Source: Candidatus Aminicenantales bacterium (GTDB taxonomy: Bacteria > Acidobacteriota > Aminicenantia > Aminicenantales > JAFGAV01). From it: a stretch of 53,220 nucleotides of DNA. The position numbers and the translations under genes are program-made. Below, in pieces: positions 1-9,791 of this stretch. The notes below the pieces were generated by a model. It ran no database searches, was not told the DNA's origin, and saw only the letters and a list, made by a program, of their open reading frames with translations. Position 1 is the first letter of the stretch, and every line of letters begins with the position of its first letter. The stretch is from positions 1-53,220 of the forward strand of contig JBAVVA010000087.1 of NCBI GenBank assembly GCA_049697055.1, read 5' to 3'.

Positions 1-168
1 CATCGGCCTTCACCCAGTAGGCATGAGACTCGCCGCTGCGGCCAGCGATAAAACCATGAAGGCGAATACGCTTGTTATTTTATGTGCGCAGCCGACTCTC
101 AGTCACTAACAAAAGAGCTTCTGGAGGGAATTCGCTGGGGGCAGCTTTTTAGGCCCTAAAATGCTGAA

Positions 169-1029
169 CTATTTCTCGAAGTGATAGTACTCTTTGGGCG
201 TTTTGGTGATGATGTACTTGATGGCCTCGCGGATCATCTTGCGGCAGGCTGCTTCTACCGGCGTGTTCTGGTAGCCCTGCAGAGTGGTGGGCAGGCTGCT
301 GGAGACGCTGCTTCCGCCCAGCCGCACATTCGTGGCGCTGCCTTTGACCGTGGTCACGGCCACGATCCGGCCGGTCCGGGTGTCGATGATCCTCAAGTCC
401 ATGCCTACCTCGGACCTGTTGTAGCCCAGGTTGGCGTCCACTATCTGGCCGAAGAGCGGGATGGGGATGGCCATCTCCCCGCCCTCCTTGGACGCTTCGA
501 ATTCCGTCAAGGCCCCGTAGATAAAGAGCTCCACGCCCTCCAACTGGCCGGCGGGAATCTTCGCCTTGGGATTGGCCGCCGCAGAGGAAGAGAGCTGCTG
601 TTCGGCCATGATATCGCCCAGGTTCTCCCGCTCATAGACGATGAAGCGGTTGCAGGCCACCAGCTCCGTGGTCAGCATCTCTTTGATCCCGGAGCTGATG
701 GGGTCGCTGAAATTTCCCCAGGCGTTGACCCAGGCCGCCTGCTGGGCCCCCGCCTGCTGCCGGTTGAGGTTCTTCATGGCCTCGGCCATGGCCTTCTGGG
801 CCTGGGCCATGATACGGGCGATATCGCGCTGGAAGGACATCCACATGTTCCCTTCAACTTTATTCTCAAAGCGGGCGACGGCAATCCGCGCCTTGGGCCC
901 GTTGTAGGCTTGGTTCTGGACGTCCTGCATGTTGGGCCCGCCTTGGGTGACGTAGCCCGTGGTGCAGCCGGCCAGGAGCAGGGCCAGGCCGGCCAGGGCC
1001 GAAAAAAGGCAAGCTTTCCGGGTCCTCAT
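169..1029 (-). CDS. CsgG/HfaB-family outer-membrane lipoprotein, paralogue 1 (carries an insertion of about 45 aa)
   Basis: 286-aa ORF. Lipoprotein signal ends in LLLAGC. CsgG-like blocks ARIAVARFENK and NRFIVYERENLGDIMAEQQL. ATGA overlap with the upstream paralogue at 1026-1029. Confidence 0.8.
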   Translation of the reverse strand: MRTRKACLFSALAGLALLLAGCTTGYVTQGGPNMQDVQNQAYNGPKARIAVARFENKVEGNMWMSFQRDIARIMAQAQKAMAEAMKNLNRQQAGAQQAAWVNAWGNFSDPISSGIKEMLTTELVACNRFIVYERENLGDIMAEQQLSSSAAANPKAKIPAGQLEGVELFIYGALTEFEASKEGGEMAIPIPLFGQIVDANLGYNRSEVGMDLRIIDTRTGRIVAVTTVKGSATNVRLGGSSVSSSLPTTLQGYQNTPVEAACRKMIREAIKYIITKTPKEYYHFEK

Positions 1030-1706
1030 TTGCCGGCTCCTTTCCCCAGGCTGGTGGTGACGATATAATCGACCGCTTTATCCAGGCAGATGCGGATGGC
1101 CTTGTCCATGGGGGTATTGTTCCAGGCGCTGAGGCTCATGACCATGGGAATGCCGCCTACCCATTTCAGCAGACCGACGCCTATGGCCGTGTCGGTGGCC
1201 TTGCCCTCCACGGTCACCGAGGCCACGATGCGCGATGTCCGCGCGTCCACGATGCGCAGGTCGATGGCCACGTGGGATTGCTTGACGCCGCCCAAGGGGG
1301 TCTGGACGCCCCTCTGGTTCGGCTCGAACTCGGTCACTGCGCCCAGGACCAGGAAGGAGGCGCCCTCCATCTCGCCGCTATTGATGGCGGCCTGCTTGCC
1401 GACCGCTCCGGATTTGGACAGCTCCTGCTCCTGCATGACCACGTCCAGGTTCTCCCTTTCCAGGACGATGAACCGGTTCGTCCGGAAGAGGGCCGACACC
1501 AGCATGTCGGTCATGCCGGTGCCGACCGAATACTGCGATTTGTTCTCAAAACGGGACACGGCGATGCGCATCTTCTCCGAAGCGCCGACGTTCTGGGCCT
1601 CCTCTATAGTCGGCCCTCCCGTGTTGACCACCATGGCCGTCGGGCCGCAGGCGGCGAAAAAGCACAAACCGGTCAAGATCAAAAAGGCGGGATGTTTTTT
1701 ACTCAT
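1026..1706 (-). CDS. CsgG/HfaB-family outer-membrane lipoprotein, paralogue 2
   Basis: Blocks MRIAVSRFENK and NRFIVLERENLDVVMQEQEL. Lipobox FFAAC. Start placed at ATG 1706 (MSKKHPAF), preceded by GAGGGA and lying downstream of the promoter and terminator. The ORF is open back to 1760. Confidence 0.8.
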   Translation of the reverse strand: MSKKHPAFLILTGLCFFAACGPTAMVVNTGGPTIEEAQNVGASEKMRIAVSRFENKSQYSVGTGMTDMLVSALFRTNRFIVLERENLDVVMQEQELSKSGAVGKQAAINSGEMEGASFLVLGAVTEFEPNQRGVQTPLGGVKQSHVAIDLRIVDARTSRIVASVTVEGKATDTAIGVGLLKWVGGIPMVMSLSAWNNTPMDKAIRICLDKAVDYIVTTSLGKGAGK

Positions 1707-1731
1707 TGTTCCCTCACTCATTAATGGCCTC

Positions 1732-1760
1732 ATTATAATCCCGCCTCCAGGCTTTGACAA
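1732..1760 (-). promoter_or_regulatory. sigma70-like promoter TTGTCA-N17-TATAAT for the CsgG-like pair
   Basis: On the minus strand, TTGTCA (1760-1755), a 17-nt spacer, then TATAAT (1737-1732). It sits about 25 nt upstream of ATG 1706 and just after the terminator. Confidence 0.5.
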
Positions 1761-1761
1761 T

Positions 1762-1810
1762 AAAAAAAAGGGATGGGCGCACGAGCGCCCATCCCTGCTT
1801 TTTTCTTTTT
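1762..1810. terminator. Bidirectional rho-independent terminator
   Basis: 11-bp GC stem GGGATGGGCGC/GCGCCCATCCC (1770-1780 / 1785-1795) with loop ACGA. It is flanked by an A8 tract on one side and a T-rich tract on the other. On the minus strand it follows the 131-aa gene. Confidence 0.75.
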
Positions 1811-1844
1811 AAGATCAGCCCTTCAACACAATCTCAATCAAGGT

Positions 1845-1870
1845 CAGCATCTCTGTTCCTGTTGATGCTG
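1845..1870 (-). repeat. Diverged third copy of the box that forms the 2300-2447 inverted repeat; also a local 7-bp hairpin
   Basis: The plus-strand sequence cagcatctctgttcctgttgatgctg resembles agcatctctgcttccgtgatg at 2299-2319. CAGCATC and GATGCTG can pair locally. Confidence 0.6.
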
Positions 1871-1876
1871 AATCGT

Positions 1877-2272
1877 TCATTCCAGCCAGATCTTGACCGT
1901 TTCGTCTTCTTCGTAAACTTCGATGAACATCATCGGCCCGAGCTTTTTCAGCTCGGCGAAAATTTCGGTCAGGTTGATGTCGAGGCCCTCCCGGTCGAGC
2001 TTGAAGCGACCCTTCTCATGCTGTTCAGCGTACTTGGCCAAGACCTCGACCAGGCTGAGGGGCAGGGTGATCTTCACCTTGTCCTTGCCCGTCTTGGAGT
2101 CGGTGACCAGCACCTTGAACCACTGCGCGGGCTTGCCGGCCTCGAACTCCGGGTTCTCCTTGACGGCCTTCTTGATGGCCTGCATGTCGTCCTTGTCCTT
2201 GGCATAGCCCTGGACGGAGAACATCAGGGCAGCCAGCAGGATAAGAATGGTGACGACTGTGGTTTTTTTCAT
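1877..2272 (-). CDS. Small secreted protein carrying the shared C-terminal 'PLxL...WLE' domain
   Basis: 131-aa ORF. Signal peptide MKKTTVVTILILLAALMFSVQGYA. GGGGAG RBS. The C-terminal part aligns with the C-termini of the 2452-3303 and 4671-5096 products. Confidence 0.7.
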   Translation of the reverse strand: MKKTTVVTILILLAALMFSVQGYAKDKDDMQAIKKAVKENPEFEAGKPAQWFKVLVTDSKTGKDKVKITLPLSLVEVLAKYAEQHEKGRFKLDREGLDINLTEIFAELKKLGPMMFIEVYEEDETVKIWLE

Positions 2273-2299
2273 GTTGTCTCCCCTTTCTTTTTAGCTTTA

Positions 2300-2447
2300 G
2301 CATCTCTGCTTCCGTGATGTGTTCCTATCATGAAGGGGTGGCGCGGCGGAGGGGCTCCCCGCCTGCGCACAGCCTTGCGAGCACAGCCGGGGAGGAGCCG
2401 CGACAGGACCCCACACGTTTTTGTTTTCATCACGGAAGCAGAGATGC
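2300..2447. repeat. Perfect 20-bp inverted repeat enclosing a 108-nt GC-rich, internally structured spacer
   Basis: gcatctctgcttccgtgatg (2300-2319) is the exact reverse complement of catcacggaagcagagatgc (2428-2447). It lies between two co-oriented genes of the ECF operon. Confidence 0.85.
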
Positions 2448-2451
2448 ATTT

Positions 2452-3303
2452 TCATTCGATCCATAATTTGATGAGGGTTTTTTCCTCACTGATCTCGATG
2501 ATGCTCATCTTGGTTCTTTCCAGGTCCTTCATGATCCGCTCCAGGTCATAGCCTTTCTGCCGGAGCATCTGCTTCTCCTTGGGAGGGATGGCCTGGATGG
2601 CCAGGTCGGCCAGGGCCAGGGGGATGTTGATCTTAATTTTGACCTTTCCGGCCTCGGTGACCTCGATCCTCAGCAGCCTGGTTTTGGCTTGAGAGTTCCC
2701 GTCCTCCCCCATGCCTTCCAGAGCCTCCGGGTCCACCCGCATCAGGCCAATCCTGGCCCTGTCCCTGAGCTCAGCGTCCTTTTCGTCCCTAATGATGTTT
2801 TTCAGGACCGGCACGGACTTGGCCGCCTGGGCCCGGTCCGTGATGTAACTGGTCTTGAAAGCGGCGTAGTACCGGACGACTTTGTTGGAACTGGCCAAGC
2901 GGCCCTCGATTTCCTTAAGGGTGGACCTGTTCCCCTTGGCATAGAGTTCATAGGCCAGGTCGATCACAATCACCTCGGACTCCTCGGCTAGGCTGGAGTT
3001 CCTGTCCTTGGACTGGAGGTAAGCCTGGAAGGCGGCTATAGCCTCAAACTCCCGGCCGTCGAGATGGCTCAGGCACTTGGCTTTGTAGAAAAGGGCCTGG
3101 GAGGCTGTCGGGCTCGAAGCATAATCCGCCAGGAGCGTCTCCAGCTTCTCCAGAGCCTGGTCCCATTTCCCGTCGAACAGAAGGACTTTCGCCTCCTGCA
3201 TGAGCCTCTCCTCCGGCTTGGCCGTTTGGCCGGCCGCCGGAGCGAGAGCCGCGAGGAGGATCAGCCCGGCCAGTGCAGCGATTTTAAAAGCTTTCGCGTT
3301 CAC
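2452..3303 (-). CDS. Secreted TPR/HEAT-like repeat protein ending in the shared C-terminal domain
   Basis: 283-aa ORF. Signal peptide MNAKAFKIAALAGLILLAALAPAAG. TPR-like helices. C-terminus reads KIKINIPLALADL...LIKLWIE. 20-nt overlap with the anti-sigma gene. Confidence 0.75.
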   Translation of the reverse strand: MNAKAFKIAALAGLILLAALAPAAGQTAKPEERLMQEAKVLLFDGKWDQALEKLETLLADYASSPTASQALFYKAKCLSHLDGREFEAIAAFQAYLQSKDRNSSLAEESEVIVIDLAYELYAKGNRSTLKEIEGRLASSNKVVRYYAAFKTSYITDRAQAAKSVPVLKNIIRDEKDAELRDRARIGLMRVDPEALEGMGEDGNSQAKTRLLRIEVTEAGKVKIKINIPLALADLAIQAIPPKEKQMLRQKGYDLERIMKDLERTKMSIIEISEEKTLIKLWIE

Positions 3304-4090
3304 TGTCCTGCAGCTCCTTTTTCACAAGATTGATCTTCAGCCAGAGCTGGCTGGCCTCGATCCGGTCCCGGATTTCGGCTCTTTCCTGGCCGGTCAGAGC
3401 CCCGCCGACTTGGGTCAGCTCCAGGATGAGCAGCTCGATCTGGTCGCAAATAGCTCTTGCCTTGGCCATCTGCCGCCGGCCGAGCTGAGAATTGATGTAT
3501 TTCTTCTTGGTCAGAAGGGCCTGTGCCTGCTGCTGGCCGAACCCCTCCCGCCACAGTTCGGTCGAATCGGCGGAGGCGGGCTGGACAAAATCGAGCAGCA
3601 GAGCCTGACTTTTATCGAGGTAACTCAACGTCTCCCGCCGGGCCAGCTCCAGTTCCACCCGGTCCAGAAACTCCGGCGAGGCGTAGAAGCCCGTGTCCCG
3701 GACGGGGCGCTGGAGGCCGGAGCGCAGCAGAAGGAACACGGCCAGGCCGCCGAGGAGAAGGCCGCCTAGAAGGCCGGCCGTGATGGGCCGGAGGAAGAAC
3801 GGCCCCAGCCAGCTTCTCCCGGAGGCCGGCGCCCGGAGTCTTTCCGGACGGTCGAACACCCGGCGGGCGATCCGCTCCGGAAGCGCTTCCCAGTCCACCG
3901 TGGCCATGACCTTTTCCATGTCTTTTTTTGCCGCGCCCGCGCCGTTGAAGATCCTCTTTAACGATTCCATCTCCCGGCGGCAGGCGGGACAATCTCCGAG
4001 GTGGCGGCTGACAGCCTGGCCATCCTCCCGGTCGAGGTCGCCCAAGAGAAAAGCAACCAGCTCCTGTTTGTCTTGACGGCAAGGCTTCAT
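3284..4090 (-). CDS. Anti-sigma factor, zf-HC2 type, single-pass membrane protein
   Basis: N-terminal H-x3-C-x2-C motif (HLGDCPACRRE). TM segment ITAGLLGGLLLGGLAVFLLL. ATGA overlap with the sigma gene at 4087-4090. Confidence 0.8.
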   Translation of the reverse strand: MKPCRQDKQELVAFLLGDLDREDGQAVSRHLGDCPACRREMESLKRIFNGAGAAKKDMEKVMATVDWEALPERIARRVFDRPERLRAPASGRSWLGPFFLRPITAGLLGGLLLGGLAVFLLLRSGLQRPVRDTGFYASPEFLDRVELELARRETLSYLDKSQALLLDFVQPASADSTELWREGFGQQQAQALLTKKKYINSQLGRRQMAKARAICDQIELLILELTQVGGALTGQERAEIRDRIEASQLWLKINLVKKELQDSERESF

Positions 4091-4674
4091 CGAGATACCC
4101 CCAAATATGGACTCAGGCGGCTCTTCAGGTTCTGAACAGCCTTGAAATGAAGGGATTTGACCGTCCCGGGCGCAATGTTCAGGATCCGGGCGATCTCCTC
4201 CACTTGAAATTGATTGTAGTGCCGCATGACGAAAATCAGGCGCTGCTTCTCGGCCAGCTTGTGGATGCAGCGGGACAGGATGTCCTTGACCTCGGCCGCG
4301 CGGCCGGCCGCCTCATTCTCCTCGGCTGGGAGGTTGAGCTCATCCAGGCTCTTCCCCGATTCGAACTCCTTGCGGCGCCGGTAGTTCTTGCGGAAATAAT
4401 CGACGCACAGGTTCTTGGCGATCTGCATGACCCAGCCCTGCAGGCTGTAGCCGCTGCGGAAAGTGTCGATTTTCTGATGCAGCCTCAAGAACGTCTCCTG
4501 AACAATGTCCATGGCGTCTTCCCGGTTGCCGAAAAAGGCATAAGCCAGCTGGAAGACTTTCTGCTGGTAGGTCCCCACCAGGTCCTTGAAAGCCTCCCGG
4601 TCGCCGGCCCTGATTCTATCGATGAGGCCGGCGGCCTGCTGGCCGCCCTGGAGCGCCGCTTCGGTCACGCTCAC
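4087..4674 (-). CDS. ECF-type RNA polymerase sigma-70 factor
   Basis: 195 aa. Region 2 (FKDLVGTYQQKVFQLAYAFFGNREDAMDIVQETFLRL) and region 4 (EIARILNIAPGTVKSLHFKAVQNLK) are recognisable. Confidence 0.9.
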   Translation of the reverse strand: MSVTEAALQGGQQAAGLIDRIRAGDREAFKDLVGTYQQKVFQLAYAFFGNREDAMDIVQETFLRLHQKIDTFRSGYSLQGWVMQIAKNLCVDYFRKNYRRRKEFESGKSLDELNLPAEENEAAGRAAEVKDILSRCIHKLAEKQRLIFVMRHYNQFQVEEIARILNIAPGTVKSLHFKAVQNLKSRLSPYLGVSR

Positions 4675-5096
4675 CTCAGCCAGACAAGGACCTGGCTTTG
4701 CTCGTCATCCACCGACACCAGCAAGCCTGGCCCGAATGGACCCAGGTCGCGGAATTTCCGCCAGTCAATGCCGTAGCGTCCATCGAAATCAAAGCCCCGG
4801 TCGTGTTCGCCGACTCCCAGACCCAGATCCAGGCAGGCTTTGGCCAGCCACAGCGGTATTTCGACGCGGACCAGGTCGCCGGCCTGGCGGTCGAGGACCA
4901 GAACGCAAAGCTCGTGGGCCCGGCCGTAGCGATGGGGATCGGCGGCCTCCAGCCGTTCGATCTCCTGGTAAGCCCGCCTGAAGAAGGGTTCCGCATCCCG
5001 GCATTTTTCTACGATCTGGACCCGGAAACAGGCGGCCGCGGCCAGGACCGCGAGGCCAAGTCCCGCTGCCTTGATCGAAATTCGGACCTTGCCCAT
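4671..5096 (-). CDS. Membrane-anchored or secreted protein with the shared C-terminal domain; first gene of the ECF operon
   Basis: ORF is open to 5123. ATG 5096 (MGKVRISIKAAGLGLAVLAAAAC) has a GAGGTG RBS 7 nt upstream. C-terminus reads VRVEIPLWLAKA...VLVWLR. ATGA overlap with the sigma gene. Confidence 0.6.
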   Translation of the reverse strand: MGKVRISIKAAGLGLAVLAAAACFRVQIVEKCRDAEPFFRRAYQEIERLEAADPHRYGRAHELCVLVLDRQAGDLVRVEIPLWLAKACLDLGLGVGEHDRGFDFDGRYGIDWRKFRDLGPFGPGLLVSVDDEQSQVLVWLR

Positions 5097-5128
5097 ATTG
5101 ACACCTCGGAAATGCATGTCCATCAGTC

Positions 5129-5156
5129 TCTACGGTCAATTTTATTAAAAGGTTCA
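5129..5156 (-). promoter_or_regulatory. Candidate ECF-type (autoregulated) promoter TGAACC-N16-CGTAGA
   Basis: On the minus strand, TGAACC (5156-5151), a 16-nt spacer, then CGTAGA (5134-5129), immediately upstream of ATG 5123/5096. It resembles the GAAC-N16/17-CGT architecture of ECF promoters. Confidence 0.4.
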
Positions 5157-5189
5157 CTCCCAATCCAGCCTTTCCAAAGACCCTTAGAA

Positions 5190-5371
5190 CCTTCGAATCT
5201 TTCTTAAATTTATAGAACCCCAGCCCCCCTGTATTCAGGGGGGTTAAAGAATGCTGCCTCCGGAAAGGTCGGCCGGAGGTACCTCCGAATCTTTCCTAAA
5301 TATATAACCCCCCCCTGCCCCCCTGGATTCAGGGGGGTTAAAGGACGGTGCCTCCGGAAAGGTCGGCGGAG
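5190..5371. repeat. Two tandem copies of a unit of about 91 bp, each with two GC hairpins
   Basis: Unit 1 spans 5190-5280 and unit 2 spans 5281-5371, mostly identical by eye. Each contains CCCCCTG-(t/g)att-CAGGGGG and a cctccgg...(c)cggag(g) hairpin. The unit junction forms the palindrome GGAGGTACCTCC. Confidence 0.8.
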
Positions 5372-5515
5372 ACAGTATTATTGAGCGGGGTTGTAGCCAG
5401 GCCGATAGACAGACTTCCAGGCCAAGTTCTCCGCCGGGAGCGACGTCTTGACCCGGAAAGCCGCCCCTACCGGAGGCGGCGGGATTTGATCAAGACGATC
5501 AGATGGAGAGAGCCG

Positions 5516-5794
5516 TCAATAGCGCGAGAAGGGTTTCCTTTCTCCTTGGGGCCTGTCGGTTCTGGGCTTGGCGTCGTTCACGATCAGCCGGCGTCCGTCG
5601 AACTCGGTGCCGTTCAGCTTGTTCTTGGCCTCCAGGGCGTTCTCGCCGGTGGCCATCTCCACGAAGCCGAACCCGCGTCCCTTGAGGATGTTGACGGACG
5701 TGACCTCACCGTAAGGGGTGAAGAGATCCTTCAGCGTTTCCTCGGTGGTTTTGTAGTTGAGGTTGCCCACGTACAACTTTCTCGAAGAATCCAT
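5516..5794 (-). CDS. RRM-type RNA-binding protein
   Basis: 92 aa. RNP2 KLYVGNL and RNP1 RGFGFVEM. GAGGAGG RBS. Confidence 0.9.
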   Translation of the reverse strand: MDSSRKLYVGNLNYKTTEETLKDLFTPYGEVTSVNILKGRGFGFVEMATGENALEAKNKLNGTEFDGRRLIVNDAKPRTDRPQGERKPFSRY

Positions 5795-5903
5795 AAAATA
5801 AACCTCCTCGCTCTCTCCGTCGTTTGACCCCAGGACTCGGGATCATGCGATCAAAAAGAACGCGCCCATTTTTCCATAATTAAAAAGCAAAATCAAGTCA
5901 CAA

Positions 5904-5932
5904 TTGGATATGTCGCTCTTTTCTGTTATATT
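5904..5932 (+). promoter_or_regulatory. Candidate sigma70 promoter TTGGAT-N17-TATATT for sppA
   Basis: Hexamers at 5904-5909 and 5927-5932. AGGAGG RBS at 5948-5953. ATG at 5959. Confidence 0.4.
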
Positions 5933-5958
5933 CCTGCTTGGCCCCACAGGAGGCAGTC

Positions 5959-7689
5959 ATGAAACGCAGCCGATATGTTTTGGCCATCGTTCTTATTTTT
6001 GCCCTGCTCCTGGCCGTGACTCTTATCAGCTTTTTTCTCACCTCGTTCGGCCAACCGCCCTCGGTCGGAGCCCGCTCCTACCTGGACATCCTCCTCGGCG
6101 GGGACCTGGTGGAATGGTCTTCGCCCAACTGGCTCAACACTCTATTCCTGGGCGGGCCGCCCCTGTCCGTCCATGACCTCTGGCTGAACCTCAAAAAAGC
6201 GCGGAGCGACCGGCGCATCCAGGCCGTCCTCCTCCGCCTCGACCTCCTCCTCTGCGACTGGGCCAAGGTCAGCGAAGTGCGTGACGCGGTTCTCGACTTT
6301 CGCCGTTCCGGGAAAAAGATCTTCGCCTACATCGAGGAGGCGCCGGACTTCGACAAAGAATATTACCTGGCCACCGCCTGCGACCGGATCATCATGCATC
6401 CGCTGGGCTGGCTGGGCATCAACGGCCTGGGCGGCCATGTCCCCTTCTATAAAAAAACGCTGGACAGGCTGGGCATCCAGGCTGAGTTCGAGCATGTAGA
6501 GGAGTTTAAGACGGCCGCCAGTCAGTACACCGAGACCGGCTTCACCCCGGCTCACAAGCTGATGATGGACTCCATCTACGGAGATCTGTTCGGCCAGTAT
6601 GTCCGGACCGTGGCTCAAGCCCGTAAGAAGAGCGAGGAAGAAGTCCGCCGGCTCATAGACAAAGGATTCTTCCAGGCCGATGAAGCGCTCCAGGACGGCC
6701 TGGTGGACGGCCTGATGTTCGAGGATGAGCTTCCGACGCTGTGGGACAAGGAGGGCGGGCTGCGCGCCTCCAAGGTCAGCCAGCAGGACTATGCCAAGAT
6801 CTCGCCTGAGTCGCTGGGCCTCAACCGCGGCCGGAAGATCGCCCTCATCTACGCCCAGGGGCTTATCCTGGCCGGCGAGAGCCTGAACGATCAGATGATC
6901 GGCAGCCAGACCTTGAGCCGCTGGATCCGGCGAGCACGGGAAGACAAGACCGTGGCGGCCGTGGTGTTGCGGGTGGACAGCCCGGGCGGCTCGGCCGTGG
7001 CCTCGGACTCCATCTGGCGGGAGATGGCCCTGACCAAAAAAGTCAAGCCTGTGGTTGTGTCCATGTCCGACCTGGCCGGTTCAGGCGGCTATTGGATCTC
7101 CATGGCCGCCCATAAAATTGTGGCCCAGCCCCAAACCCTGACCGGCTCGGTCGGCGTGCTCGTGGGCAAGTTCAATTTCCAGGGGCTCTACCAGAAGATC
7201 GGCATGACTTCGGAAAGAATCGCCTACGGCGCACATGCCGACGTCTTCTCCACATTTCGGCCGTTCACCACGGAAGAGAAGGCCTTGCTGAAGAAACAGA
7301 TATTGTGGATCTATGACCGGTTTCTGAGAAAGGCCGCTGAAGGCCGGAACCTAACCAAGGAGGACGTCAATAAGGTCGGCAAAGGCCGTGTCTGGACGGG
7401 CCATCAAGCCCGTTTGAACGGCCTGGTGGACGAGCTGGGCGGGCTTAACCGGGCCATCGAGCTGGCCAAGGAGTTGGCCGGCATCTCCGCTTATCAGGAC
7501 GTCAAGCTCGAAGTCTGGCCCCGAAAGACCTCTGTTTGGGGTTCCATATTCGGCCGCCAGGAGACTCTCCTGGACCTGGCTCACACCCCCAAAGAACTGG
7601 CCGCGGCCCTGGCCGGCCTGGAGAGGCTCATGGACAATGACCGCATTCTGAGCTTGATGCCTTTCGGGCTCGGCCTTTCGCCCCGCTGA
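5959..7689 (+). CDS. sppA: Signal peptide peptidase SppA, 67K (two-domain) type
   Basis: N-terminal TM segment. Two ClpP/crotonase-like halves. Second half has VVSMSDLAGSGGYWISMAA. Start taken at the ATG after AGGAGG; the ORF begins at TTG 5938. Confidence 0.9.
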   Translation: MKRSRYVLAIVLIFALLLAVTLISFFLTSFGQPPSVGARSYLDILLGGDLVEWSSPNWLNTLFLGGPPLSVHDLWLNLKKARSDRRIQAVLLRLDLLLCDWAKVSEVRDAVLDFRRSGKKIFAYIEEAPDFDKEYYLATACDRIIMHPLGWLGINGLGGHVPFYKKTLDRLGIQAEFEHVEEFKTAASQYTETGFTPAHKLMMDSIYGDLFGQYVRTVAQARKKSEEEVRRLIDKGFFQADEALQDGLVDGLMFEDELPTLWDKEGGLRASKVSQQDYAKISPESLGLNRGRKIALIYAQGLILAGESLNDQMIGSQTLSRWIRRAREDKTVAAVVLRVDSPGGSAVASDSIWREMALTKKVKPVVVSMSDLAGSGGYWISMAAHKIVAQPQTLTGSVGVLVGKFNFQGLYQKIGMTSERIAYGAHADVFSTFRPFTTEEKALLKKQILWIYDRFLRKAAEGRNLTKEDVNKVGKGRVWTGHQARLNGLVDELGGLNRAIELAKELAGISAYQDVKLEVWPRKTSVWGSIFGRQETLLDLAHTPKELAAALAGLERLMDNDRILSLMPFGLGLSPR

Positions 7690-7752
7690 GCGGCGGCGGG
7701 GCGGATACACAGCCAAACGGCGCCTCGGCGAGGATTTTCCTGCTTCCCTCCT

Positions 7753-8808
7753 TCAGGCTAGGGCTGATTTTGCATAATATTTCCGCTTGAACCTCAAGGC
7801 CACGTTGACCAGGCCGATCATAACCGGGACTTCGATGAGCGGTCCGATGACGGCGGCGAAGGCCTCCCCCGAATTGATCCCGAAAACGGCCACGGCCACG
7901 GCGATGGCCAGTTCGAAATTGTTGCTGGCCGCCGTGAATGACAGGGTCGCCGCCCGGGGATAGTCCGCGCCCGCCTTGCGGCTGAGGAAGAACGAGACGA
8001 GGAACATGACGACGAAGTAGATGAGGAGCGGGAGGGCGATCCGCAGGACATCAAGGGGAATTTTGACGATGAACTCGCCCTTGAGCGAGAACATAACGAC
8101 GATCGTGAAGAGCAGGGCGATGAGAGTCAGCGGGGAGATCCGCGGGATGAACTTTGTCTGGTACCAGGTTCTCCCCTTGAGTTTGAGCAGGCTGAAGCGC
8201 GTGATCACACCCGCCAGAAAAGGCAAGCCGAGATAAATGAAGACGCTCTTGGCGATTTGCCCGATCGTTACGTCGACCGCGGTCCCTTTGAGTCCCAGCC
8301 AGGCCGGGAAAACCGTGATGAAGACGTAGGCATAGACCGAGAAGAACAGAACCTGGAAGATCGAGTTGAAGGCGACGAGTCCGGCCGCATACTCCCTGTC
8401 CCCCTGGGCCAGGTCGTTCCAGACGATGACCATGGCGATGCAGCGGGCCAGGCCGATCATGATCAGGCCGTACATGTAGTGCGGATGACCGCGCAGGAAA
8501 ACAACGGCCAGGGCGAACATCAGGAGCGGTCCGATCACCCAGTTCTGGACAAGCGATAGGGACAGGATTTTGACGTTCCGAAAAACGTCTCCTAACTCCT
8601 CGTACTTCACTTTGGCCAGCGGCGGGTACATCATCAGGATGAGCCCGAGGGCGATGGGGATATTCGTCGTCCCCGACTGGAACCTGTTGATGAAGCCGAC
8701 GACACCCGGGACGAGATAGCCCAGGCCGACGCCGAAAGCCATAGCCAGGAAGATCCACAGCGTCAGATAACGGTCGAGGAACCTGAGTTTCGTTTTTCCG
8801 AATGTCAT
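7753..8808 (-). CDS. acr3: ACR3-family arsenite efflux permease
   Basis: 351-aa polytopic membrane protein. The N-terminus [24 protein letters not shown] is typical of ACR3. It sits in an ars context. Confidence 0.9.
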
Positions 8809-8881
8809 GCGTCTATCCTCTCTTTTAGACGTTCCCCCGCGGGCAAGGGCTCAGATGATCACGATTTCCGGCTCCAGGACA

Positions 8882-9364
8882 TCAGGATCCATGCTCCGCT
8901 CCTCCGGAAAAACCGCCTGGTCCGCCCGCCGCGCCGCCGGGACGTCCGAGCCCGGCACCGAACGTTTCCTCGACCCAGCGCCGGATCTCGTCTCGGCTGC
9001 GGCGGAAGCAGGCCAAAATGTCCAGCTCCGTGCCCCGGCAGGCTGCGGGGTCCTCGAAGGTCACGTGTCTGTATTCCTTTCCGCCCGGAAAAAACGGGCA
9101 TGTCTGACGGGCCTTATCGCATACCGTCACGATATAATCAAAAGGTTGGTTGATGAATTCGTCCACTCCTTTCGAACGATGGCCGCTGATGTCGATGCCG
9201 ATCTCGGCCATGACCAGGATGGCGGCCGGAAGGACCGCGGTGGCTTCCATGCCCGCCGAGAAAGCCTGGAACCGGTCGCCGTAAAGGGCGTTGACCAGTC
9301 CCTCGGCCATCTGGGAACGGGCCGAGTTGTGAGTGCAGATGAAGAGGATTCTTTTTTTATCCAT
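8882..9364 (-). CDS. arsC: Arsenate reductase, LMW-PTP / thioredoxin-coupled type
   Basis: CTHNSARSQ P-loop plus the distal Cys pair in VCDKARQTCPFF. Start at ATG 9364 with an AAGGA RBS, overlapping the arsR stop. Gly-rich C-terminal tail. Confidence 0.9.
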   Translation of the reverse strand: MDKKRILFICTHNSARSQMAEGLVNALYGDRFQAFSAGMEATAVLPAAILVMAEIGIDISGHRSKGVDEFINQPFDYIVTVCDKARQTCPFFPGGKEYRHVTFEDPAACRGTELDILACFRRSRDEIRRWVEETFGAGLGRPGGAAGGPGGFSGGAEHGS

Positions 9365-9791
9365 GATTGTCCTTTCCACGGGCGCCTCGCACCGTCTCCG
9401 CGCGCGACGTTTCGCAGACCCGCGCCCGAATATTCAGGCGAATGGAGGCGTCGAGCTTGCAGGTATCCTGGGCGGTCTCAGGCGACCCCTCGATCCGCTC
9501 CCGGAGCGCGCCGGCCAAGAGGTCCTCGACGAACGGCCGCGCCTCGGCGGAGATCCGGTAGATGATCCAGCGGCCTTGCCGGATGTCCTCGACGATCCCG
9601 GCCTCGCGCAGGATCCGCATGTGGTGAGAAACGCGCGACTGCTCCATGTCCAGAACGAACATGATCTCGCATACGCAGAGCTCGCGGCGGAGGAGGAGAA
9701 GCACAACCCGCAGCCGCGTCGGGTCCGCCAGCGCCTTGAAGATCCTGACGACGGCCTTCAGGGACGCTGGATAATTCCTTTTCTCGGCCAT
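9357..9791 (-). CDS. arsR: ArsR/SmtB-family metalloregulator
   Basis: Winged HTH (LADPTRLRVVLLLL...) and the ELCVCEI As(III)-site motif. Confidence 0.9.
   Translation of the reverse strand: MAEKRNYPASLKAVVRIFKALADPTRLRVVLLLLRRELCVCEIMFVLDMEQSRVSHHMRILREAGIVEDIRQGRWIIYRISAEARPFVEDLLAGALRERIEGSPETAQDTCKLDASIRLNIRARVCETSRAETVRGARGKDNHG

Follow-up and report, generated by a model that had tools for sequence, protein, structure and literature searches.

In the RpoE-RseA-RseB(-RseC) system of Escherichia coli and in AlgU-MucA-MucB of Pseudomonas, proteolysis of the anti-σ factor is controlled by an accessory protein that attaches to its periplasmic domain. CnrX, a component of the CnrY-CnrX-CnrH system of Cupriavidus metallidurans, senses metal and has a four-helix fold. 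In Porphyromonas gingivalis, PG0214-PG0218 and PG0985-PG0987 comprise a gene for an extracytoplasmic function (ECF) σ factor, a hypothetical protein and at least one small DUF4252 protein, which are listed as a co-regulated block (PMC10101095, PMC10434189). Here we describe an operon on contig JBAVVA010000087.1 of a Candidatus Aminicenantales bacterium, in which genes for an ECF σ factor and its putative anti-σ factor are combined with genes for three predicted exported proteins that share a C-terminal module. The whole stretch of DNA that was analysed, 53,220 nucleotides in length, is referred to as the window, and the operon, including its conserved counterparts in relatives, as the cassette. 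Tentatively, the module proteins may act as periplasmic partners of the anti-σ factor.

Five co-directional open reading frames (ORFs), g1 to g5, were found on the minus strand between positions 1877 and 5123, at the coordinates that the original prediction had given for them. g1 (4671-5123 as an ORF of 150 aa, or 4671-5096 for a product of 141 aa when started from the internal ATG) encodes a lipoprotein that belongs to no Pfam or NCBIfam family. It is followed by g2 (4087-4674; 195 aa, GTG start codon), which encodes an ECF (group 4) σ70 factor, and by g3 (3284-4090; 268 aa), which encodes a single-pass anti-σ factor of the zf-HC2 (ZAS) type. The product of g4 (2452-3303; 283 aa) consists of a signal peptide, TPR-like and HEAT-like regions and the C-terminal module, and that of g5 (1877-2272; 131 aa) of a signal peptide, a short helix and the module. 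The module itself is encoded at 4674-4928 in g1, 2455-2691 in g4 and 1880-2131 in g5, in each case on the minus strand. Three gene overlaps had been described previously. The ATGA at 4087-4090 (g2/g3) and the 20-nt overlap at 3284-3303 (g3/g4) were found again, but the overlap at 4671-4674 (g1/g2) reads GTGA and not ATGA because the start codon of g2 is GTG. The arrangement supports a single predicted ECF σ/anti-σ transcription unit with tightly coupled genes.

Two start codons come into consideration for g1. The -10 element of the promoter described below ends 5 nt ahead of the ATG at 5123; as this codon lies in or directly behind the promoter, the usable start is the ATG at 5096. The latter is preceded by a Shine-Dalgarno sequence (GAGGTG), and the resulting 141 aa compare with 140 to 142 aa in g1 relatives. 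Localisation signals were judged from the sequences by eye. g4 and g5 have classical N-terminal signal peptides. Relatives of g1 share the lipobox L-[ST]-[AG]-C, the cysteine of which is conserved in 50 homologs; the variant A-A-A-C of the window protein retains this residue, and g1 is therefore a lipoprotein rather than merely anchored. The earlier claim that all three module proteins carry signal or anchor sequences was borne out in this way, and g1, g4 and g5 are inferred to be exported. The TPR-like repeats of g4 extend approximately over residues 30-105 and the HEAT-like region over residues 120-190. Although E values indicated significance, scores against the respective Pfam models stayed below the curated cut-offs (TPR_16, E = 5e-7, 30.4 bits with a cut-off of 32.7; TPR_6, 23.2 bits with a cut-off of 26.3; HEAT_2, E = 0.076).

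The C-terminal module common to g1, g4 and g5 is approximately 80 aa long. In BLASTP comparisons, g1 and g5 matched over almost their full length (E = 1e-13) and the C-terminus of g4 matched g5 (E = 5e-7); the direct match between g1 and g4 reached E = 0.17 only. Pairwise identities of the modules are 19-30%. A hidden Markov model (HMM) was built from 120 g5 homologs and used to screen every stop-to-stop ORF of the window with a minimum length of 50 aa, 576 in total. It matched g5, g4 (1.9e-8) and g1 (1.8e-3) only, and no further ORF in the 53-kb window carries the module. A second HMM, derived solely from non-Aminicenantes proteins with two modules (see below), retrieved the same three ORFs (6e-14, 7e-5 and 4e-4). 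Comparison of family profiles by hhalign (50 g1, 76 g4 and 120 g5 homologs) gave probabilities of 98.2% for g1-g5, 94.7% for g4-g5 and 88.1% for g1-g4. The two independent HMMs and hhalign thus agree on three paralogous copies of the module, as had been proposed.

The module was also said to fall outside every named family, and this was upheld by profile scans, in which no Pfam or NCBIfam cut-off was passed. Nothing in either database matched g1 or g5, and the module found no significant family when g1, g4, g5, 39 members of the g5 family, 43 plus 119 two-module relatives and consensus sequences were scanned. Sub-threshold matches of the 119 two-module relatives were scattered over DUF6432 (20/119), DUF3394 (12/119) and DUF4252 (6/119). 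DUF4252 (PF14060) also appeared below threshold in 3 of the 43 relatives, with E values of at least 0.004 in both sets, and against the consensus sequences of the family at E values of 0.07-0.5 over about 33 residues (at most 13.7 bits, the cut-off being 23.9); g1, g4 and g5 themselves did not match it, and the Pfam model was not passed. At these scores the similarity to DUF4252 is not significant, and homology between the module and DUF4252 is neither shown nor excluded. Sequence-profile searches of the PDB with alignments of g5 and of the two-module proteins gave best E values of 0.03-1.5, judged to be noise (fatty-acid-binding proteins, Roadblock/LC7 and PCNA). An AlphaFold2 (AF2) model of a two-module protein, computed from a 119-sequence alignment (pLDDT 86, pTM 0.76), shows each module as a β hairpin, a helix, a short strand, a second helix and a further β hairpin. 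The less confident model of g5 (pLDDT 64) consists of a hairpin, two helices and a hairpin. When both models were compared with the PDB by Foldseek, the best E value was 0.065 and no TM score exceeded 0.3.

A search of 1.84 billion representative proteins with the module profile yielded 842 matches at E ≤ 0.001, 128 of them at E ≤ 1e-10, where matches are clusters at 50% identity. Besides g5-like proteins, they included a large group of secreted proteins, approximately 180-200 aa long, in which two modules stand in tandem. When 43 of these two-module proteins served as the query of a second search, no fewer than 2,812 clusters (90% identity) were returned, and none of the two-module proteins from it had a precomputed Pfam domain. 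In the few cases where source names are given, these proteins belong to Terriglobia, Candidatus Acidiferrales and Candidatus Eisenbacteria. On three long contigs, no σ or anti-σ factor gene adjoined the two-module gene. A possible σ linkage was considered for one contig with an ECF pair 2.7 kb away, past genes on the opposite strand, and was judged coincidental. The idea that the module is dedicated to σ/anti-σ units was given up: most of the family occurs outside Aminicenantes and without an adjacent σ factor. On the three contigs the two-module gene is followed by a paralog of approximately 160-172 aa with an N-terminal transmembrane anchor (HMM E = 1e-18 to 3e-10), and a soluble member beside an anchored paralog fits modules that pair with each other. 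Such two-gene units were seen at L091 5001-6046, L092 5001-6256 and L093 5001-6079, with a secreted member of approximately 186-190 aa. The genes around the pair vary between contigs, and the pair is a self-contained, unannotated two-gene unit.

An ECF-type promoter is located on the minus strand at 5129-5157, with the -35 element GTGAACCTTT at 5157-5148 and the -10 element CGTAGA at 5134-5129. AAC in the -35 and CGT in the -10 region are hallmarks of ECF promoters. The sequence TGAACC-N16-CGTAGA is present at 5156-5129 just as claimed before, and 17 nt separate GAAC from CGT. When GAACCTTT-N13-CGT was searched in the 53-kb window, this promoter was the single match, and tolerating one mismatch added no other. 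Of 94 loci, 57 contain TGAACCTT-N14-CGT; each of these has a single copy, located ahead of the first cassette gene on the strand of the cassette, and the opposite strand has none. In nearly all remaining loci for which upstream sequence is available, the corresponding position is occupied by TAAACCTT-N14-CGT. Together the elements give the consensus G.GTGAACCTTTT, a variable spacer and cCGTAgtA. In its general form, GT(G/A)AACCTT-N14-CGTA, the element is conserved in position and sequence across approximately 75 loci, with nearly invariant -35 and -10 parts and a varying spacer. It lies approximately 59 nt upstream of the g1 start codon and, in loci without g1, 60-270 nt upstream of g2; this shift to g2 would be the behaviour expected of an operon promoter. 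The footprint ahead of the operon in about 75 loci lends good support to predicted autoregulation of the operon from its own ECF promoter, in line with the original prediction. In most loci, TGAA is conserved approximately 8-10 nt past the -10 element (around 5118-5122 in the window), which may mark the transcription start region or an additional recognition element.

g2 has σ70 regions 2 and 4 only and belongs to the ECF (group 4) σ70 factors. It exceeds the cut-offs of Sigma70_r2 (69 bits), Sigma70_r4_2 (52 bits) and, with 29 bits, of Sigma70_ECF, as well as that of TIGR02937 of the ECF superfamily (110 bits, cut-off 42.9), the sole NCBIfam model passed. Neither g2 nor four relatives reached the cut-off of any NCBIfam equivalog or subfamily model. 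The closest ortholog-group models were PG0214/GFO_1088 (112.5 bits, cut-off 130) and Bacteroidetes type-1 (107-119 bits, cut-off 126), and the SigW model gave 115 bits with a cut-off of 209. Membership of the σ factor in the PG0214/GFO_1088 group was rejected, as its 102-112 bits lie below the cut-off of 130 and are no better than the scores of several unrelated ECF models.

By its zf-HC2 match (PF13490; 28.5 bits, cut-off 22.2, residues 4-38) and the position of its gene directly after the σ factor gene, g3 is a predicted zf-HC2/ZAS anti-σ factor. The HxxxCxxC motif (H30, C34, C37) is conserved among its homologs, and one conserved hydrophobic span corresponds to a transmembrane segment at approximately residues 100-122. 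The helical periplasmic domain (residues 130-268) is strongly conserved, and this conservation would imply a specific partner or ligand. Seven sequences of this domain matched no Pfam family, and the domain does not contain the shared module. No paper on an Aminicenantes anti-σ factor was found in a literature search. Most g3 homologs (64 of 72, loci L001-L083) end in (S/G)-E-V-COOH, 54 of these in SEV. In the lineage of the window the C-terminus (3284-3295) is extended by 4 aa and ends in ...SERESF. As a matter of speculation, the conserved periplasmic C-terminal tripeptide might resemble a recognition tag for PDZ domains or tail-specific proteases.

Conservation of the cassette was determined in Aminicenantes, which we take to be the class Aminicenantia of Acidobacteriota (GTDB). 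The g5 family comprises 479 homologs of 128-131 aa without Pfam domains, and all named sources are metagenome-assembled genomes (MAGs) of Candidatus Aminicenantes. A scan of one genome per species revealed relatives in 115 genomes, from which 80 loci were fetched. When loci were searched by tblastn (83 loci), the order g2-g3-g4-g5 was found in every locus that spans the region, save the partly deleted locus L017. In most loci, as in the window, a gene for the S49 peptidase SppA and one for a small RRM protein are located upstream. g1 was found in about two thirds of the loci and is missing from about one third. Two deep-branching metagenomic contigs keep the order σ factor, anti-σ factor, g4 and g5, with identities to the window proteins of 35%, 30%, 37-40% and 32-34%, respectively. 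The gene junctions are conserved as well: in 56 of 75 loci the reading frames of g2 and g3 share 4 nt, g3 and g4 are either 1 nt apart or overlap by 11 nt, and the g4/g5 spacer measures 16-18 nt. Such conserved coupling would fit synthesis of the products in a fixed ratio. With this distribution, the ECF operon is a putative core-genome unit of Aminicenantes. The gene set proved syntenic in relatives, the module is placed in no known family, and the likeness of its copies is not insignificant; these are the three points at which the original prediction had exposed itself.

No match to g1 was obtained in L028, L034, L036, L037, L050, L054-L058, L060, L063, L065-L068, L071 and L080. Several g1-less loci (L036, L055, L056, L080) have approximately 200 nt of unexplained sequence between promoter and g2. 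Many records labelled 'uncultured Eubacteriales bacterium' (L006-L008, L013, L014, L019, L020 and others) contain the same cassette with the same neighbours as Aminicenantes MAGs; these labels are probably placeholders or errors.

In the closest complete genome, OY969762.1 (locus L017; 79694-93921, compared with window positions 2109-5358), identity is 97.6% over sppA and falls to 87% across the region. Two stretches are missing from this locus: one of 2,442 bp, with the promoter, g1 to g3 and the 117 N-terminal residues of g4, and one of 342 bp, with a hairpin element (see below) and the first 55 codons of g5. Of g4 and g5, only remnants remain. The cassette is therefore dispensable, or strain-variable, in this lineage.

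How the module proteins relate to the anti-σ factor was approached by partial Mantel tests for co-evolution in 40 loci, controlled for SppA. The σ factor and the cytoplasmic part of g3, used as positive control, gave a partial r of 0.44 (p = 0.001), which is also an indirect hint that g3 would bind and inhibit its cognate σ factor. Co-variation was seen between the periplasmic part of g3 and both the g4 module (r = 0.29, p = 0.001) and g5 (r = 0.24, p = 0.002), but not for the cytoplasmic part of g3, with r = 0.13 (p = 0.07) and r = -0.07 (p = 0.77), respectively. The g4 module and g5 co-varied with each other (r = 0.39, p = 0.001). For the envelope-sensing role suggested in the original prediction, these tests offer weak, indirect support.

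We propose, with a probability of roughly 0.45 and hence tentatively, that the anti-σ factor is partnered in the periplasm by the module proteins, which would modulate its stability or its signal input. This proposal draws on the synteny, the conserved coupling, the promoter, the conservation of the g3 periplasmic domain, its co-variation with the modules, the paralog pairs in other genomes and the joint loss in L017. Under it, the single conserved ECF promoter would drive g1 to g5, with a strong terminator after g5. Going by its family membership, the cytoplasmic zinc-finger domain of g3 would hold the σ factor at the membrane. The lipid-anchored g1, the TPR/HEAT scaffold g4 and the small, soluble g5 might assemble in the periplasm via their shared module and bind the conserved periplasmic domain of g3. 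Once bound, the modules could act as RseB/MucB or CnrX do, either as a shield against proteolysis or as a relay of an envelope signal. A signal that disturbs the complex would lead to degradation of the anti-σ factor, and the σ factor set free would re-transcribe the operon, upon which the system resets. The wider claim that the module is an undescribed periplasmic domain family with a novel fold, whose paralogs, one anchored and at least one soluble, pair with each other and which in Aminicenantes is wired to the periplasmic domain of a ZAS anti-σ factor, appears less likely than not in this full form. The partner-switching set envisaged earlier found no backing: no domain of the anti-anti-σ type turned up, in scans of which none was aimed at it, and the module proteins carry export signals.

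Several points weigh against a role as anti-σ partners. The co-evolution test is a weak one, since related sequences easily produce false positives in partial Mantel tests and SppA controls for this imperfectly. Most genes of the module family have no σ or anti-σ factor gene next to them, and the module is therefore not in itself an anti-σ ligand. g1 is dispensable in about one third of the lineages. A redox signal from the cytoplasm would also be compatible with the ZAS motif. Finally, one copy of the promoter per 53-kb window or 14-kb locus would equally fit operon products that are the output of the σ factor.

The last point leads to the alternative that holds up best, and which we regard as a serious possibility: the module proteins would be envelope-protective or structural proteins, placed in the operon so as to be co-induced and made in greater quantity upon release of the σ factor, and g3 itself would be the sensor, be it through the periplasmic domain or through the ZAS zinc site in the cytoplasm. 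Apart from the single promoter motif, which always stands before the cassette, such a role agrees with a large module family that is mostly not linked to σ factors, as though it had an envelope function of its own, and with g1 being optional, as an effector might be. The scan for the motif, however, covered only a small part of any genome. Moreover, g4 is tightly coupled to the anti-σ gene and this coupling is conserved, and the way in which the periplasmic domain of g3 co-varies with the modules is more typical of partners in a complex.

A different role, as cargo, clients or sensors of CsgG-like channels encoded downstream, had been considered in the original prediction. Two CsgG-domain lipoprotein genes (PF03783) are located at 169-1760, adjacent to and co-directional with the cassette, and both products pass the Pfam cut-off (136 and 104 bits, cut-off 20.8). 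Against the curli CsgG equivalog model NF011731 they score only 24-26 bits, the cut-off being 505, and are therefore not curli CsgG orthologs. The cassette is closed on the minus strand by an intrinsic terminator at 1761-1796, approximately 80 nt past the g5 stop codon, with a 12-bp stem of nine G-C pairs among its pairs and a 4-nt loop (1796-1769), followed by T8. Directly after it, at 1760-1732, a σ70-type promoter (TTGTCA-N17-TATAAT, 11 of 12 positions) starts the CsgG pair. Apart from the window, only three close relatives (L017, L084 and L085) have the pair after g5; in approximately 80 other loci, the sequence downstream of g5 yielded no homolog of CsgG. Relatives with 88% identity in g5 have a NusG-like gene instead, and more distant ones have unrelated genes. 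Given the terminator, the separate promoter and the narrow clade, the CsgG pair is a lineage-restricted transcription unit of its own, and a functional link to the module proteins is very improbable. The two CsgG-like genes overlap by 4 nt. As their promoter falls inside the longest ORF call, the start codon of the first gene is probably an ATG further downstream (MSKKHPAF...).

Chance or compositional resemblance of unrelated C-termini, at which the low pairwise identities and the insignificant g1-g4 BLASTP match might hint, is practically ruled out by the two HMMs that each single out the same three of 576 ORFs and by hhalign probabilities of 88-98% for every pair, and both AF2 models show the same secondary-structure pattern.

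Two further features of the window were noted. The g4-g5 spacer contains, at 2300-2447 on the minus strand, a lineage-specific hairpin element of 148 nt that stands outside the conserved cassette. Its ends are perfect inverted repeats of 20 bp (GCATCTCTGCTTCCGTGATG ... CATCACGGAAGCAGAGATGC), and its inner stem is GC-rich; the folding energy is -88 kcal/mol (z -6.8), and the window contains a single copy. Confined to this strain, it is missing from all relatives, where the spacer has the length of 16-18 nt mentioned above. An Rfam scan of positions 1-9000 gave no match for this element or anything else. It looks like a small inserted hairpin, putatively of the miniature inverted-repeat transposable element (MITE) or repetitive extragenic palindromic (REP) type, within the operon transcript. 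At 7753-9379 (minus strand), a gene for a transporter of the SBF/ACR3 type (204 bits) adjoins one for a low-molecular-weight phosphatase/ArsC-like protein (66 bits). This pair is probably an arsenic-resistance unit that is unrelated to the σ factor operon.

Aminicenantes are abundant in anoxic sediments, and to our knowledge the group has no cultured representative. The cassette is one of few class-wide regulatory units of Aminicenantes, now with a promoter motif recognisable at the sequence level, and this motif offers a handle for regulon prediction in complete genomes and for heterologous tests. What is known in this locus is a standard ECF σ/anti-σ operon; what is new are its accessory proteins, which belong to a large family outside Pfam and NCBIfam without a relative of solved structure. 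The module suggests itself both as a new curated family and as a target for structure determination. If the modules bind the anti-σ factor, they would represent a new type of periplasmic accessory protein beside RseB/MucB and CnrX, and if the paralog set is truly wired to the ZAS anti-σ factor, a new class of extracytoplasmic co-sensor in ECF signalling. If they do not bind it, a clean, ordinary ECF operon remains.

Among the systems with which the operon can be compared, the unannotated two-module family (proteins of approximately 185 aa) has the same module (hhalign 93-98%), signal peptides and sets of paralogs. It differs in having two tandem modules per protein, no adjacent σ/anti-σ pair and no TPR/HEAT fusion. 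With the DUF4252 operons of Bacteroidota, our operon shares an ECF σ factor gene followed by genes for small proteins without known function, but the module fails the DUF4252 model, with sub-threshold matches only, and the σ factor remains below the PG0214/GFO_1088 cut-off. In CnrY-CnrX-CnrH, a periplasmic protein is likewise encoded in an ECF operon, and CnrX there acts on the membrane anti-σ factor; no homology exists, however, and the gene order is different.

SigW-RsiW of Bacillus subtilis resembles the present pair in its membrane-located anti-σ factor of the ZAS (zf-HC2) type. The SigW promoter, TGAAAC-N16-CGTA, has the same general form as TGAACC-N16-CGTA found here, and SigW models were among the top-scoring NCBIfam matches for g2. 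With 115 bits against a cut-off of 209, g2 is nevertheless not an ortholog of SigW, and sigW-rsiW lacks a co-transcribed set of secreted paralogs.

In comparison with RseB and MucB, the module proteins gave no sequence match in Pfam, NCBIfam or the PDB, and Foldseek comparison with LolA, whose fold RseB/MucB resemble, gave E values of at least 0.17 and TM scores of at most 0.28. The anti-σ factor of our operon is of the zf-HC2/ZAS type and not of the RseA type. In their organisation, the RpoE-RseA-RseB and AlgU-MucA-MucB operons are nonetheless similar: in all of them an ECF operon that is autoregulated, or in our case predicted to be so, has a coupled gene for a single-pass anti-σ factor directly after the σ factor gene, and genes for periplasmic accessory proteins follow the anti-σ gene. 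The operon described here differs from them in encoding three paralogous accessory proteins instead of one, of which one is a lipoprotein encoded ahead of the σ factor gene.

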